A stretch of DNA of 64,000 bases from Sarea resinae (lineage: Eukaryota), in assembly GCA_026026165.1 (NCBI GenBank), contig JAPEUD010000018.1, positions 186,001 through 250,000 on the forward strand, read 5' to 3'. Shown piece by piece: positions 2,257-30,208 of the stretch. The position numbers and the translations under genes were made by a program. Every line of letters starts with the position of its first letter. Positions within the stretch are counted from its first letter, which is position 1. Below the pieces are notes generated by a model. That model saw nothing but the letters and a program-made list of their open reading frames with translations. It had not been told where the DNA came from and ran no database searches.

Positions 2257-2655
2257 TGAGTAGATACTCTGAGTACTGGGGGCCTTGTGTGATCAGTGTG
2301 TTAGCTGGCTTAGATAGAGTATCTCTTGAGCTGTGGAGAAGGTGCGTGGGTTTGGATATCATTTTTGGTCTGTAGTCTGAGCGCCGGCTGCCTCTGGGGC
2401 CTTTCTGCTGCTGGAAAGGGGGCCAGTGGCTTGAGGAAGAGTCCTTTCTTGATTGCTAGGTATTTATGATTCAAAAAGAGACATTTTCTAAAAGGAACTG
2501 ATGGACCGAGTGTCTATCACAACACCATTCTCCTTGATCGGAATTGCTACAAGGCCAAGTAAGACACGAGAGAGAGAGAGAAAAGCTCTGAATTCTACTA
2601 TATCGTCATTCCCCAGCTACGTTCGCGACACAGACACATGATCTCAACAAGACAA

Positions 2656-2692
2656 CCCCATGCATCCATGCATCCATGCATCCATGCATCCA
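2656..2692. repeat. (CCATGCAT)n tandem repeat just 3' of the CFT1 stop codon
   Basis: ccatgcatccatgcatccatgcatccatgcatcc read directly. Confidence 0.9.
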
Positions 2693-2702
2693 CGCACACC
2701 GC

Positions 2703-5700
2703 CTACAAAAAGCCCAATCCCGCGCCACCAACGATATCCAAATCGGCCCGGACCTCCCAATCCTCGGCGCCGATGCGCCCGCAGATCTCCGCGCGCCGCT
2801 GACTCCCCAGCATCATGTACTGGCGCAGCAGCGCGCCGTCGACGACATTCCGGCCGCTGTTGACGCCGCCACCGATGCCGACGCCCAGGCCGCCGCCACC
2901 ACCGCCGCCGATGGTGCCGGCGCTCCCGGCCGCGTGAAGGGCGGATACGGCGCGGTAGGCGCGCGGGTTCAGGCCGCAGGCGTGCTCGAGGCTGTTGAGG
3001 AGCGCGGTTTGCAGCGCCGAGAGGCGGCGGTATTGGGACTCGGTGAGTGGCGAGAGCAGGGCCAGGGTACCGGATTGCGAGGTTATGAGGAGGTGGTGCG
3101 GCGGGAGCGTGGCGAGGTCTTGGTCTTGGTGGTTGGTAGGCGAGTCTGTCATGCTGGTGTCGTTGTCGTCTGGGCTGGTGACGGAGAGGCGCGGAAGCGT
3201 CGAAGGGAGGAGGTTGATCGAGGTCGTGAAGTGGCCTGTGTGGAAGGCGCTGCGGTGGATGAGACGTTGGCCCGAGAGAGATTGAGGGTCTATCGATTTT
3301 GAAGGAGAGGCAAACGTTAGCTTTTTGGTATGCGCTGGTAGAAGGCAGTAGGGGGGGGTAAGGAGCTTTCGGGATAGAAAAAAGAGACAATGTAATGGAC
3401 TTACGCTCGGGGTCGAATTGTAGCACGTGGAGGTTGCAATTGTCGTCTGCCACTATGATGAAGAGTTGGTTGGCATCGGGGAGGAAATCGGCAGCCATGA
3501 CTGATAGGTGCGTGACGTCTTTGCCGAAGAGGTTCATTTTATACGGCTCCTCCTATTGTGAAGAGCGTTAGCTGGAAATTGCTTAACCGGTGAGCGGCGA
3601 CAGCAAACTGTCAATCGAGAAGCTGGTGTGAGAATTTACGCACCGAGTACCCAGTCAGCCAGATCCCTTTCAACGCGTCGCCCATGATACACAACCCCGT
3701 CCCCTTCAACTCCTTGGCCACAGAAACATAGCACTGCATGTCCATGAAAGCGACAGGCAGCAAACTGCCATCTTCCTTCAAGCCCCTGACCATGCATTTC
3801 TGTCCCTGGGCCGCAAGCAAGAACCCTTGAGATCCGATTTCCGAAAGCGCAGTCACAGCGCCCTTGACCTCTTCTTTGGCGATGAGCTTGAGCTTGCGGT
3901 TGGTTTCCGGGTGGCCGGGCTCTGGCACGACGGAGATGATATCGAAGATGTAGATGTTTCCCTTGGTTGAGAGGTCTTCACCTTGAAGGATCGCAGTGCC
4001 TACTGCTATGAGAGGCTTTCTTTCGTGCGTAGTTTCGGAGATTTCCAGGTTCAGGGTTTTAATGCAGATGACACTTTCGGTGGGCTCGAGTTCGTATCTG
4101 GAAGCAAGTCAGTCATACCAAGAAGAAGTTCGGACACGGGGAAAGCGGGAATGAATACGTGTCAACGACCGTCCATGTGATGGGATTCAAGATCTTAATG
4201 AAGCCATGGTCGATTTCGGGTTTGAAGCTTGTGTCTAGGACTATCAGCTGTCTGAACTAGAGCTGACCATCAATCCATAATTTACCTTCTCTCTTCCATT
4301 CATGATGGAAGTCGTCATCTTCTGGTAGCTTGAACTCTTCTTTCTCGCTCGTTCCAATGACATATACCCCCATAGGAGCATGATAACTAAGAGTGTACAC
4401 TTCCGAACCAACTGCTACTTTCCGCGTCGCCCAGCCCGTTTCGCTGAAATGGGTTTTTGGTGGCAGTTGAGACACCCGTACAATGCCCTGTAGTACTTGC
4501 GTAAGTGCCCGACAATAGACTTGGACCAAGGTCAGGATTTCTCACATTATTGTCGACATAGACGAATCCTCTATCACACCCGCCAGTATGGAATCCGCTC
4601 ATTCCACGGACGGCTTTGCCTTGAAGGTTCAGCACTTTCGGAATGCTTTGGGCACTTTTTATGATAAAGCTTGGGGAACTTCCAGGCAGGAACACCGTAC
4701 TATATCCCCCGATATTAGATACAGCGCGCAAGGGATTCGCACGGCCTCCTTGATTGCCTTCGGTATCATCATGGGCAGCCTCGGCCGGTGACTTGGGAAG
4801 ATGGGGATTTGGGATTTTTAGAAAATGGAGGCTACTAGAGAGTGAAGTCTCAGAACCACCGTCACGCCAGTGGTAGGGCTCGTAAATGGTCAAATCGTCG
4901 TTTGCGGTACGCAGCTAGACGGTATCAGTGCTGCAAACTACATGCATCGAGAGAAGCTTACGATCATGTATGGAGTACTTGCTGTCTCATCACCAAGGTC
5001 TGCGACGATGACTTCCGTGAGCGTTTCTTTCGTAGTTGAGCGTCTGACAGTATAATCAGACGACAGCATAGGAGGAAGATAACTGAGGCCTTCGGCGACG
5101 TATATTGGCTTTGTTAAGTCGGGAAGAGCATATATCTATCGTGAAAGTGATATCAGCAGCTATCGTTCAAGCCAGACCAAAAATTGGCCTATAACCGTAG
5201 GCAATCCGAAACTCACCTGCATTCCTCCTTGTGTATTCAAAAGAAACATCAAGACTTTTCCTTGGCTTTTCTCGCGACCTGATTTCATCTCGATAGCCCC
5301 ATTCCGATCCCGATACAACGAGCCTGAGAGCCACTTCATGGACATCAGCGCATCACCTCTCTCCACTTCATCTAGATCTCCGCTATCATCGGCCTCCAGT
5401 ACCACGATACTAGCATCGTCCCGCACGATCAAAAGATATGGATCCGCAAAACTGACGCTAACAACCGTGGGCTCTGCGCCTGTAAGTTCATCCGCCATGG
5501 GAAATATCTGTGAAAGGCCAAGCTCTGTAGAGACATCAGCATCAGAATAGTGACTGGCTCCATACAATAACAATCACTTGGGCAAGCAGTGCGATGAACA
5601 TGTGCAAGGTGCATAACGTATTGTATTTCGTTATGAAACATAAATGGTCTGCAGTCCCAGAATAGCCAAGGCCAACTGTATGTGGTGTCCGAAATCGACA

Positions 5701-8059
5701 GTATATCCTTCATCCCAGAGAACAGGCCTAGAGGAACAAACAAAGGTAGTGCCAAGGACCAAAGACTATTATCCTTCGAAGTCTGCTTGTCCAGACCTGC
5801 CCTTGCCAGCCAGTATTGGCGAAGAGATCCACTGCTTCGCAACCGTAGACACGGTTCCGAACTTTCCCATAGCAAGAGAGCTATCGGAACGAATATTCCT
5901 GACGAAAGAAGGATGAAAGGGGAGAAAAAGGGGCAAGAAAAGATACGGGGCTTACCTCCGTCATAGCTCCTAATTTCCGCCCCTAGCACTTGCACCACCC
6001 GCATCCCTCGAGCCAAAGTTCCCACATCGATCGTGCCTCCTGCCGACGGTTCGAATTCAGTACCTTTAAGCTCCTCAAAACCCGTTGGCGTCAAAGCATA
6101 GACAGCAGACTCATCGGCGCCGGTTGAGGACATCTTAGAAACAATCATGAATCGGTCGTACTCAATGTCAAGTGCATAAGCGGCCTCGGGTCCTTCTTTG
6201 CCTTTGGCAGAAGACTGCGAGACCATGCCCTTGGCAATAGGCCTCTTGGCGCAGACAGACCAGACGCCTTGTGCTTCAAGAAACTCAAATCGCCCTATCA
6301 CCTTCGGGGCAATCCCGCGGCCCATTACAGCAACCCCTCCCGCCCTGCCCCGCCCAGACGGCGTCACAAGCTCGAGGTCGGCCACGACGTCTCTTGAGTT
6401 CTTTTCCTGCTCGCTATCTGGAAAGAACGCAGGACTACCTAAGGCAATCTCTCGCGTAGGGGCGACATTCGGCAAGATATCGTGGATTCTAAAGACATAA
6501 TCACCAGCTTGGCTACGCTCAAGAGCAGCAGACGCATCTTTCCGCTCCTGAGTCTGCTCTGCCTCGCCGGAATACAAGTCATCCTGGTCTTCTCCATCCG
6601 CCGAGTCAAAAAGATCGTCTTCGTCATCCATTTCCATATGTTGGCGCTGTTTTGCTGATCGATTCGATCTTTGCGTCCAACCAAGCAGGACAGAATCCGC
6701 ATCTTCGCTACCAACTAGAATCCTGCCACGGTCGACAAGAGTGGTACAGAAAGCTCCTGCCTGCAAGATCTTCCCTCCATGATCAACCGTAACCCGTCGA
6801 ACGTTGACACTGGAGACTGATCTACCGTCCATGGCAAAACCCAGAATAGCAAGCTCTCCGGTGTTCAGGATGATGGCCATGTCTCCATTATCGGCCCCCA
6901 GCTGCTGAATCGAACACCCCTCCAGCTTCAGTTGAAGGTCGGATTGGTCCGCCATTGCAAAAGAGGAGGATTGCTTTGCGAACTCATTCACACCGACTGC
7001 ATTAGTCTTTCCGGCTTGATCCACGTGTATGAGCTCGTTGGCACCCACGAGAAGTGCTCCACCGACAGGCAACGGAAGTGGTATGACTCTGTGAAGATCG
7101 TACGGGAGCCCCGAGATGGAGAGTAGCTCTGTAGATTGGCGTTGTTCCAGTTCCAACGTATATACACCATATGAGAGCATATCGCGGCGCTCATGGAGAA
7201 GGGAAGAAGATGGCGACTTCTCGCAAGAAAGAACCCCAAAGGTGGGCTCGCGGTATTCGTAGAGGAAAGCCAGGTGTAATGGATGGATGAGCCGTGGTTG
7301 AACGGTAGCGAGAGACAGCACAAAGGAAGATGCGTAGGGTGTTGGCCATGAAGAAGTATTTCCACCGACTGTTTTCAGACTAGACTTGGGCTCCGGATTC
7401 TCTCCATCCAGGTCTGGGTCATAATCATCCATGACAAGATCATCGCCCGCCTGGTGAAATGGCAGGACCGCCAGACTCCGGGCTCCAAATTTCAGCACGG
7501 CGCACCGGCTGCTCGGATCAACACTCAGATAGCTAGCATATTGGCTGAGATCAGAGGCCCACGGGCTCTTGAGTAGGTCATCGCCCTCGTAATAGTGTAT
7601 TGAGATGGTCGAGAGACTATGTCGTTCCGGATCCCACTCGACCAGACTCAGCTTGGCGTCTCGAAATGCGACGAGGAGCGCTTCTCCGCCCGCTTTCGAA
7701 TTCAGCGTCTTGATGCGAGCGAGAGATGTGACGGTGCCCGGTAGACTGTACTCGGCGACCAAGATGAGCTTGGTGGAATGGATGCGTTCGGCGCGTTGAA
7801 TGGTCAGATCGGTCCCTAGAAACGTCTGCTCATTGTTTTCGCTCTCAAGATCGCGCCGACTGGGAACCTGAGGATTCTCGTCGACGGCCGCATGGTTGTC
7901 CTGGGTCCCATCGACCTCGGTGATAATTGTCTTCCATCTGAAGATTTGAAGAAGGGAGGTCTTCGCTACGACTAAATTATTCGATGACGGTGCCAGGAAC
8001 GGAAGGGTCAAGGCATGCGTGACCGCAGTCGGAGGAGTGAGTTCGGTATAGCACTGCAT
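2703..8059 (-). CDS. CFT1: Cleavage and polyadenylation specificity factor subunit 1 (CPSF160/Cft1), multi-exon
   Basis: Starts [15 protein letters not shown]. Contains [68 protein letters not shown] and [14 protein letters not shown] pieces at 5429-8119, 5160-5573, 4387-4893, 4257-4529, 3611-3928 and 2703-3152 are joined by GT-AG introns. Confidence 0.96.
5525..5955 (-). other. Long (431 nt) first intron of CFT1 with multiple hairpins; candidate intronic structured RNA
   Basis: Donor GTAAGC at 5955, branch-like GCTGAT and acceptor CTACAG at 5525. Splicing restores [13 protein letters not shown]. Inverted repeats at 5864-5889, 5841-5856, 5819-5840, 5780-5797 and 5612-5635. Confidence 0.6.
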
Positions 8060-8582
8060 GCTGAACGGCGCAATGCTTCCTGATCTCTCCTCTCGGTCAT
8101 CGGCCTGAGCACATCGCACTATCGAAGTCCCATGAAAGGTGGATGAGTGCTGTAGATGTTGTTGATGGGCGAAGAAGACAAGAGCAGAGATGATGAAGAT
8201 GCACTGAATTGGTGCTTTGATATGAAAGACGAAAGTTCGAATTGGAAGTTGATACGAAACTGCACCTTTGGGTGCCGTGTGTAGCGTACAAAGTAGTCGT
8301 GTACCCTGAAGCTCCAGCTATGACGGTGATGATGATGGACGACGCGATACACCGCAAGCTGCAGCTCCCTCCATACGCCTCACTTTGCCATCAACACTCC
8401 TCCACCGTCAACCACCCACGTTGAGTCTTCTCACAGTCTCACCGGGCCACCGATCTCACCATTCTCGGATCATCATCAAAATGCTTGCGAGGAGCATATA
8501 GCGAACATAGAACCATTGCCATTGCTCAACTCCCAAAACAACAAACTCGTCGTGAAGCAGGCGAACACCCGACATCAGCACC

Positions 8583-29882: not shown

Positions 29883-30208
29883 GTAGATAGAAATTCCATC
29901 ATGAATATCTCTCTCTCTCTCTCCTTCTTCTCCCTCTCTTTCCTCTGCCAAACCAAAAAAGCCAAAAACAAACAAAGACAAGCCAAACGACCACCCAAAA
30001 AAAAGAAAGAAAACACATACGGCAGCGGGTATTCGCTGGTCGTCACCGACCCAACTACTAATCCGCCGGTTTGTGGCTTGAGAGCAGGAGAGCGGACGGG
30101 ATCCTCTATATTCCACAACCTATGGCCGTATGTGTCTGACATAGTGTGTACTGCTGTATATATCTTTCATAAACTGGGTCACGGACGCTTAGCACTCATG
30201 TGAGGCCG

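Follow-up and report, generated by a model that had tools for sequence, protein, structure and literature searches.

The first intron of CFT1 (CPSF160) in the fungus Sarea resinae is several times longer than the other introns of the gene, and the question raised by this locus is what such an intron is for. The gene lies on the minus strand at positions 2702-8059 of a 64,000-nucleotide (nt) stretch of contig JAPEUD010000018.1, which was analysed as a whole and is called the window below; all coordinates are positions in it. An earlier note on this DNA described the intron as oversized and hairpin-rich, and proposed that it hosts a structured RNA of the H/ACA small nucleolar RNA (snoRNA) type, or else a regulatory element. 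The present analysis indicates that intron 1 of CFT1 is probably not a snoRNA host, and that it belongs instead to a widespread class of long introns that carry an element resembling a poly(A) signal and avoid in-frame stop codons.

The host gene was identified by a protein search with exon 1, which gave 1616 matches with E <= 0.001 among 8000 scored candidates, the best 120 being listed; hundreds of the matched proteins are named CFT1 or CPSF subunit 1. The search retrieved a deposited protein, P0003, of 1473 amino acids (aa), which is 100% identical and carries the source label of a Sarea resinae metagenome-assembled genome. When P0003 was walked along the window it was reproduced exactly in nine exons, giving the following model of the region of interest:

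5956-8059, minus strand: exon 1 of CFT1, aa 1-701, from the P0003 gene model
5525-5955, minus strand: intron 1 of CFT1/CPSF160, 431 nt, phase 1, GTAAGC...CTACAG, junction SYDG/ELGL, from the exact P0003 walk

Pfam analysis of the protein revealed a first beta-propeller at 93-473, a second propeller at 632-757 (partial and below the cutoff), and a CPSF_A domain at 1063-1437 (E 5e-98). By these positions, exon 1 stops partway through the second propeller. The identity with P0003, the CFT1/CPSF subunit 1 homologues and the CPSF_A domain all mark the host as a cleavage/polyadenylation factor gene. The other seven introns of CFT1 are 81, 47, 58, 51, 61, 91 and 115 nt long in the same walk, and intron 1 is 4-9 times their length; it is therefore a size outlier, with 431 nt against 47-115 nt. 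The boundaries and the oversize reported by the earlier note hold, since the junction is reproduced by the P0003 walk and the lengths of the other introns agree.

To follow this intron through other fungi, metagenome contigs were searched with an alignment built from relatives of exon 1. The scan matched 172 stretches, of which 113 were confirmed and 80 were kept as orthologous loci (L numbers below); 74 of these include both the end of exon 1 and exon 2. After SYDG, at the same codon position, an intron of 200-454 nt is present in 43 loci (36 distinct sequences) and one of 47-68 nt in 25 loci (20 distinct), while in the six loci L008, L080, L026, L027, L029 and L059 the intron is absent (gap of 0-6 nt). 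L080 retains the next intron and thus represents a precise loss of intron 1. L008, which is 96% identical to a Rutstroemia protein, is without the later introns as well and could be a contig derived from a transcript, and the contig of L066 stops 6 nt into the intron. The proteins of L019-21 are 99% identical to that of Cadophora malorum, and the other long forms are closest to Leotiomycete (59-79%), Lasallia (55-60%) and Oleoguttula (54-62%) proteins. As the best named proteins come from these groups, the long form spans several classes of fungi.

Over most of their length the long introns are dissimilar. Comparison of the window's intron by blastn with the 36 distinct orthologous long introns revealed no similarity, and the other long introns fall into 10 blastn groups, the largest of which is united only by a short internal block. 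This block belongs to a core shared by the long forms, UGU..UAUAGCAUC-AAU(G/A)(A/C)AA-UUUA-CC, situated 86-129 nt ahead of the 3' splice site; its consensus is ...GCTATCTGGGAAT(N10)ATGTCCTATAGCATCAATGAAAGCATTTACCA..., with the variants CAATACAAA and CAATGAAAG. The 16-mer ATAGCATCAATGAAAG was found with up to five mismatches in 31 of the 36 distinct long introns and in none of the 20 distinct short ones. L010, L053 and L058 carry an ATAG...CAATACAA form, and the core is weak in L009/L012. A profile built from 23 long introns matched 42 of the 43 long-intron loci, within the intron and on the sense strand, and in addition L074; elsewhere in the 80 loci it gave no more than three weak matches (E 0.47-6.7). 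This test is partly circular, 23 of the loci being the training sequences. The distance of the core hexamer from the 5' splice site, 108-339 nt, varies far more than the 86-129 nt that separate it from the 3' splice site. The earlier note had taken a short or unalignable orthologous intron as grounds for refutation. Such introns do occur in some lineages, but a large host intron is present in 43 of the 74 informative loci, with the shared core in most of them.

The layout of the core was determined from an ungapped profile anchored on the hexamer, using 24 representatives of 37 distinct sequences after near-duplicates had been dropped. UGU occupies positions -14 to -12 and UAUAG -9 to -5, and a C is found at -1 in 22 of 24. 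Within AAU[A/G][C/A]AA five of the seven positions are fixed in 24/24 or 23/24. UUUA follows at +10 to +13 and CC at +15-16. The stretch from +6 to +16 is 72% A+U with 9% G, and that from +16 to +26 contains 40% C. Further downstream, YCAC/ACCA is present at +10 to +32 in 19 of 24 (0.15 in control windows) and GTG[CT] at +36 to +72 in 17 of 24 (control 0.11). One of the two main hexamers, AAUACA, is a common variant of AAUAAA. Judged from sequence, the order and spacing of these elements fit the poly(A) signal of Neurospora: Zhou et al. (2018; PMC5869017) describe poly(A) sites there as A-rich at -30 to -10 and U-rich at -10 to 0, with cleavage usually at C/A, AAUGAA as the commonest hexamer of the signal, and sites located 5-35 nt downstream of the motif. 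In the relatives this order and spacing are present in full, and in the window in part.

Depending on the lineage, translation of the core yields ..NSINE.. or ..IASMK..; with two reading frames in use, it is the nucleotides of the core that are conserved, not a peptide. The two frames likewise led to the rejection of a conserved intron-encoded peptide and, together with the lack of a conserved GU after the core, of a coding micro-exon, a poison exon and alternative splice sites at this position. The distances between UAUAG and the 3' splice site, which are not multiples of three, speak against the micro-exon, poison-exon and alternative-splice readings as well. A conserved structure upstream of the core was rejected as well: the upstream regions of 24 lineages show no excess folding (mean z +0.21, none below -2), and RNAalifold on 13 relatives retained a single 5-bp stem, GCUAU/AUAGC.

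The second feature of the class concerns the reading frame of exon 1, which continues through the intron. In the window it appears as follows:

5429-5955, minus strand: exon-1 frame open across the whole intron, with the first in-frame stop at 5431-5429; part of open reading frame (ORF) 5429-8317

From the 5' splice site the window's intron has 175 open codons in the exon frame versus 24 and 0 in the other frames, and the probability of a shuffled sequence having no stop between the 5' splice site and 20 nt past the core is 0.013. The same is true of almost all the long orthologues, where the median open stretch is 92 codons versus 18 in the next frame. Stop codons were counted in the 24 representatives, about 20 of which have mutually unalignable upstream parts, with these totals:

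5' splice site +8 to hexamer: exon frame 5, +1 frame 66, +2 frame 56
hexamer to +36: exon frame 1, +1 frame 2, +2 frame 5
+36 to +96: exon frame 28, +1 frame 30, +2 frame 24

The binomial probability of only 5 of 127 stops falling in the exon frame is 4e-16. Four of these five stops are in L002 and one is in L007. No stop occurs in the other 22 representatives, for each of which the shuffle probability of zero stops falls between 0.007 and 0.117, and in all of them the first in-frame stop lies at least 36 nt past the hexamer. Among the short introns, 11 of 20 contain in-frame stops. On this evidence the open frame is a constraint separate from the core and without a conserved peptide.

An independent sample was provided by 84 ORF-type proteins from the exon-1 search that continue from exon 1 into the intron, full-length models longer than 1000 aa and P0001-3 being excluded. 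The core is read as ..IASMK.. in 28 of them and as ..SINE.. in 24, and six have other long tails; poly-lysine tails are found on none of the 84. Only 4 of 56 stop at the TAG within the core (P = 4e-6). These proteins also indicate that ORF callers applied to metagenomes routinely read through the long CFT1 intron. At the level of the class, the intron size, the core and the stop desert are firmly established.

A stop desert extending from the splice site to a poly(A)-like element is the pattern predicted by premature polyadenylation with a non-stop product. With a stop ahead of the site the truncated RNA would be an ordinary mRNA, encoding a 701-aa fragment that breaks off within a propeller; with no in-frame stop up to the signal it would be a non-stop mRNA. 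Cft1 is the scaffold of the module by which the cleavage and polyadenylation factor recognises poly(A) signals, and the pattern suggests that this poly(A) factor limits its own production. From these features we infer cleavage at the site, feedback by the level of Cft1 and a non-stop fate of the transcripts. Transcription would run through exon 1 and then through 100-340 nt of fast-evolving intron, until the signal emerges about 90-130 nt before the 3' splice site as UGU, UAUAG, AAUGAA/AAUACA, a U-rich stretch, a C/A site and a downstream GUG(C/U). Here the cleavage and polyadenylation factor would compete with splicing for the CFT1 transcript. When the factor is abundant, more of the transcript would be cleaved and polyadenylated in the intron, and when it is scarce the intron would be spliced out and full-length mRNA produced. 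The truncated non-stop product, comprising one and a half beta-propellers without the CPSF_A propeller, would be cleared by non-stop decay and ribosome quality control. That an intronic poly(A) site yields non-stop truncated transcripts and places CFT1 under feedback control is given about even chances. The wider proposal must be put somewhat lower, at a little under even: that across much of Pezizomycotina a conserved poly(A) site in the first intron controls CFT1, that selection keeps the 100-340 nt ahead of it stop-free, and that the truncated transcripts are non-stop and are destroyed together with their product.

The window's own intron contains a diverged copy of the core, to which the following features belong:

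5597-5641, minus strand: diverged copy of the long-intron core, from the best local alignment of the whole intron with the core of L001
5622-5627, minus strand: AAUACA hexamer, situated 103 nt ahead of the 3' splice site and matching the AAUGAA/AAUACA of relatives in the alignment
5587-5617, minus strand: predicted cleavage/polyadenylation zone, 5-35 nt past the hexamer, with the best guess at C5611/A5610 after UU-A, in GCACC, predicted from the anchored profile and the Neurospora sites of PMC5869017

The alignment with L001, the nearest relative, has a score of 30.5 versus 23.3 +/- 2.8 for shuffled sequences, 2.5% of which score equally well, and the best alignments of the window with L013 and L068 likewise pair core with core. 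The window's core, AUGUUUCAUAACGA-AAUACAA-UACGUUAUGCACC, has kept UGU, the hexamer, UU-A and CACC, and its UAUAG has diverged to CAUAAC. Owing to this divergence the activity of the core is less certain in the window than in the relatives. The regulatory element offered by the earlier note as an option is thereby supported in a sharper form, a conserved core combined with stop avoidance, and what it described as an ACA-containing hairpin corresponds to the diverged core copy.

Two profiles of the relatives' cores have their top matches in the window elsewhere. That of the first is at 13203-13167 on the minus strand (E 0.054; ATATGTCTGATAGCA...CAATGA), in a divergent intergenic region ahead of a gene on the minus strand. 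Both this match and that of the second profile, at 16908-16875 (E 0.19), look like chance and were rejected. Neither a second copy of the intron within the 64-kb window nor a tRNA-like element or the head of a short interspersed element was detected. The remaining features of the intron are:

5535-5545, minus strand: two CTGAT branch-point-like motifs, 10-20 nt upstream of the 3' splice site, from the sequence and gene model
5901-5949, minus strand: pyrimidine-rich tract immediately downstream of the 5' splice site, from the sequence and relatives

A pyrimidine-rich tract is also found in the first ~35 nt of most long orthologous introns.

Sequence of the intron from a close strain is present in an RNA library. 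A search for sequencing runs gave X1, the likely source DNA run, and one metatranscriptome run, X2. The latter, which contains a small share of the words (0.11), was examined over the range 2400-8400, where most of the gene is uncovered. Three contigs were obtained:

5625-5919, strand not distinguishable from the contigs: X2 contig of 294 nt, wholly intronic, depth 7.97, with 7 substitutions and a 1-nt deletion
6544-6691: X2 contig of 151 nt, exon, depth 2
7275-7447: X2 contig of 173 nt, exon, depth 2.6

Neither joints nor loose ends are reported among these three contigs. Contig depth cannot rank parts of a gene and DNA may occur in RNA libraries, and the uncovered parts and the depth contrast of X2 were not used as evidence. 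The intronic contig stops inside the conserved core. In the X2 strain the 1-nt deletion, at 5656, shifts the frame ahead of the hexamer, and the frame is still stop-free until 76 nt past the end of the hexamer if the window sequence is assumed downstream of 5625. The same strain has a 3-nt (TCC) in-frame insertion at 6623, in an acidic low-complexity stretch of exon 1. Among the relatives, L074 is a 1943-nt contig that consists of exon 1 and 185 nt of the intron and ends in ...CAATGAAAGCATTT (L074:1700-1943); its end, ...AATGAAAGCATTT, corresponds to hexamer +12, one base short of the consensus A at +13. The ends of the X2 and L074 contigs fit an intronic poly(A) site loosely, and neither shows a tail.

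Several observations weigh against polyadenylation within the intron. The X2 contig ends within the hexamer rather than 5-35 nt beyond it, and it is unjoined to exon 1 and has a depth of 8 versus 2 and 2.6 for the exon contigs, neither of which would be predicted if exon 1 and the intron formed one transcript. Neither L074 nor L066 carries an indication of its sample type, and no poly(A)-tailed read or contig and no mapped 3' end was seen in the intron. In the window, GTG[CT] is not at its usual place and the core profile falls short of significance, with E=32 when the window and E=2.7 when the gene alone is searched; the other profile of the relatives' cores gave a non-significant E=13 at the intron site. 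Early in-frame stops are found in L002/L003 (18 codons open) and L007 (22 codons open), 4 of the 84 ORF-type proteins terminate at the core's TAG, and 22 have tails shorter than 55 aa. The 5' splice sites of the long introns are strong (GTAAGT/GTGAGT), unlike the weak site of intron 3 of CstF-77, a gene considered below. The core is also far stricter in its conservation than ordinary fungal poly(A) signals, which are described as degenerate in PMC5869017, so that something more specific may bind it. Finally, pairings of the core region with the 5' splice site and with upstream sequence may either tune a poly(A) site or indicate a switch based on splicing.

Such a switch, in which retention or splicing of the intron is regulated without polyadenylation, through a splicing regulator that recognises the core or a structure in which the core hides the 5' splice site, and translation of the unspliced mRNA into the intron gives a truncated Cft1 with a variable tail, is the strongest of the alternatives, and it is unlikely. 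A stop-free frame would suit it, and so would a core conserved more strictly than a generic poly(A) signal should be. The segment of 35 nt past the core gives, in 8 of 24 lineages, the best or near-best duplex of the intron with its own 5' splice site (best in seven, L013, L007, L069, L052, L053, L058 and L067, and near-best in L011), with apparent covariation between GGUG/GUAAGU pairing with AUUUACCACC in L011 and GGGUG/GUGA pairing with UCACCACCC in L013. In a Leotiomycete-like clade (L011, L019, L024, L036, L069 and L014) an upstream GCUUUC..GCUAU, some 60 nt ahead of the hexamer, pairs with the core's AUAGC..GAAAGC, and L014 shows a compensating GAUUU/AAAUC. These core hairpins are however specific to the clade, and the pairing with the 5' splice site is absent in L001, L002, L010, L028 and the window, where 95% of other segments pair equally well. 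The peptide encoded by the intron, which would form the tail, is not conserved. If full-length unspliced RNA were translated, it would be hard to see why stop avoidance should cease precisely at the core, with 28, 30 and 24 stops in the three frames from +36 after the hexamer onward. Premature polyadenylation predicts such an end.

Rather less probable is that the Sarea intron is merely long and nonfunctional, either decayed or unrelated to the class, with its open frame and hairpins due to chance. The lack of a significant profile match at the site and the ordinary folding of the whole intron are in keeping with this, and a chance of about 1% for the open frame of a single sequence, small as it is, is not negligible for an intron picked as odd. 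Against it, the intron shares the splice position and the long size class of its orthologues, its hexamer lies at the distance from the 3' splice site typical of the class, and its best alignments with three relatives fall core on core. Moreover, the frame is stop-free both in the window and in the variant strain, despite the frameshifting deletion of the latter.

The idea with which the locus was originally singled out, a hosted stable RNA, fares worse and is improbable. In the form that could still apply, a lineage-specific RNA of H/ACA or other type would occupy the upstream part of the intron (~5919-5620) and be freed after splicing. The helices and boxes named by the earlier note, including the UGGUC/GACCA pairing, are all present in the intron sequence at the coordinates given, and its local hairpins also appear in the predicted folds. 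Two elements are of particular concern here:

5767-5777, minus strand: GAAGGAU arm (5777-5771) and AUAAUA 'H box' (5772-5767), the partner of the arm being AUCCUUC at 5914-5908 (inverted repeat)
5612-5635, minus strand: 7-bp hairpin CAUAACG/CGUUAUG with the AAUACA hexamer in its loop, the 'ACA-containing hairpin' mentioned above

The X2 contig at 5625-5919 is what such an RNA might leave, being wholly intronic, unjoined to exons and ending one base before the ACA at 5624-5622; it is also deeper than both exon contigs, for what a measure that cannot rank gene parts is worth. AUAAUA fits the H-box pattern ANANNA, and an A>C change at 5769 in the X2 strain preserves the fit. Folding gives a divided result. 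The whole intron has a minimum free energy (MFE) of -119.3 kcal/mol versus -115.0 +/- 5.9 in dinucleotide shuffles, an ordinary value (z -0.72; opposite strand z -0.09), while sub-region 5619-5919, picked by the cover of the RNA contig and independently of folding, reaches z -2.31 (1/100 shuffles equally good) against z -1.65 on the opposite strand. Perfect 7-nt complementary pairs are enriched, with 11 in the intron versus 4.6 +/- 2.5 in 300 shuffles, 1% of which reach 11. The description of the intron as hairpin-rich is therefore apt in a mild sense and for the Sarea intron only.

The proposal of an H/ACA-type RNA nevertheless fails most of its tests, namely Rfam, box spacing, fold layout and conservation. 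No relevant Rfam family was found at E up to 10 in the intron (5525-5955) with flanks or in the core region, nor any match in the introns of the relatives L007 and L013, and at gathering score the whole window gave nothing relevant to the intron. Its sole family at that score is a 5S rRNA gene at 30014-30133 on the minus strand (RF00001, 78.2 bits). A C/D box snoRNA was rejected too, with only chance-level Rfam matches (E 2-7, far below the gathering score) outside or across the region and no conserved C/D boxes in the alignment of the relatives' introns. The ACA spacing, already conceded to be imperfect, is so indeed: 20 nt separate the end of the proposed 3' helix, at 5645, from the ACA at 5624-5622, and the triplet falls in the loop of a separate hairpin instead of directly after the 3' hairpin. 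It also belongs to a motif that is conserved for other reasons and that in many lineages carries GAA at this place. AUAAUA at 5772-5767 fits its pattern, yet it overlaps the proposed closing helix by 2 nt, and since ANANNA occurs five times and ACA seven times in the intron, boxes of this type carry little weight. The long-range 7-bp helix is missing from the MFE structures of both the whole intron and 5619-5919. The two-domain hairpin-hinge-hairpin layout is absent from their MFE and centroid structures, the proposed hinge being located inside a long 14-bp helix domain.

The conservation expected of an H/ACA RNA is also lacking. Upstream parts of the intron are unalignable between lineages, that of the window is unlike those of its nearest relatives, L001 and L002 align only from the core onward, and the upstream regions of the 24 lineages have no excess structure. 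With just 99 nt upstream of the core, the intron of the shortest relative offers too little room for two hairpins. The X2 strain differs from the window by 7 substitutions and 1 deletion in 294 intron nt versus 3 substitutions and one 3-nt insertion in 324 exon nt; as the intron diverges more than the exons, it changes faster than expected of a functional RNA, and one of the variants, at 5801, disrupts a pair in the strongest helix.

Least probable of all is that the core acts as DNA, as an intronic enhancer or a transcription-factor site of the CCAAT-like kind, or as the signal of a separate sense transcript starting after the pyrimidine tract, which would accord with its strict primary-sequence conservation, its little conserved structure, its invariant CAAT and the start of the X2 contig just past the CT-rich tract (CT-rich tracts are fungal core-promoter elements), but which leaves unexplained a stop avoidance that depends on strand and frame, goes with exon 1 and ceases at the core, the fixed distance from the core to the 3' splice site, and the ordered layout of A-rich, U-rich, C/A and GUG elements.

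No report of an intronic element or autoregulation of CFT1/CPSF160 was found in the open-access text available, including surveys of fungal structured RNAs, work on the cleavage and polyadenylation factor of fission yeast and a 2024 review of CPSF, and the same text contained no report of premature-polyadenylation feedback in filamentous fungi. If the proposal of premature polyadenylation is true, it would represent, as far as that text shows, a new feedback loop on CPSF160/Cft1, and would explain how fungi keep the level of their poly(A) machinery steady. The intron would be a rare case in which the only long-range constraint is the absence of stops, readable from genomes, and its core would constitute a compact and strongly conserved natural poly(A) switch of ~60 nt that could be moved into reporters. 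A stop desert ending at a poly(A) signal could also serve as a genome-readable signature for finding non-stop regulatory isoforms in other genes. For gene annotation, the long CFT1 intron is no place to mine for snoRNAs.

Compared with the H/ACA snoRNAs hosted by introns in fungi, the CFT1 intron has in common an RNA-processing host gene, local hairpins, ANANNA and ACA motifs and an intronic contig in an RNA library. It differs from them in its wrong box spacing, the lack of an Rfam match, the lack of sequence or structure conservation in orthologous introns, and an ACA placed in a motif that varies to GAA.

A closer resemblance is found among factors that regulate themselves. Vertebrate PCF11, by a poly(A) site in its intron 1, and plant FCA/FPA, by premature polyadenylation, reportedly attenuate their own genes through a conserved premature site. 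The loop proposed for CFT1 is similar, in that a processing or termination factor would attenuate itself. We know of no stop-free constraint in PCF11 or FCA/FPA.

The nearest parallel is CstF-77 (Drosophila su(f) intron 4, vertebrate CSTF3 intron 3), for which Luo et al. (2013; PMC3708835) describe feedback autoregulation by a conserved intronic poly(A) site, with the large intron being important. Both CstF-77 and CFT1 encode core 3'-end factors and have an oversized intron, and the ordered upstream element, hexamer, U-rich and GU elements of the conserved CstF-77 signal (PMC3708835) have counterparts in the CFT1 class. Use of the CstF-77 site gives a truncated transcript and less full-length mRNA (PMC3708835), an outcome that would have its counterpart in CFT1. 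The intronic isoform of su(f) has no in-frame stop (PMC3708835), as is the case for the long CFT1 introns up to the core. The two systems differ in gene and kingdom, in the size of the intron (hundreds of bases in CFT1, 33 kb in CstF-77) and in the 5' splice site, strong in CFT1 and weak in CstF-77 intron 3 (PMC3708835). In CFT1, where cleavage and feedback are proposed, stop avoidance forms a signature of selection across many lineages, unlike in CstF-77.

Premature polyadenylation within the ORFs of Neurospora (PMC5869017) resembles the CFT1 core in its top hexamer AAUGAA, its A-rich and then U-rich layout, its C/A site and its truncated transcripts. The Neurospora sites are degenerate, lie in ORFs and are selected against by codon usage, whereas the candidate site of CFT1 is intronic and strongly conserved.

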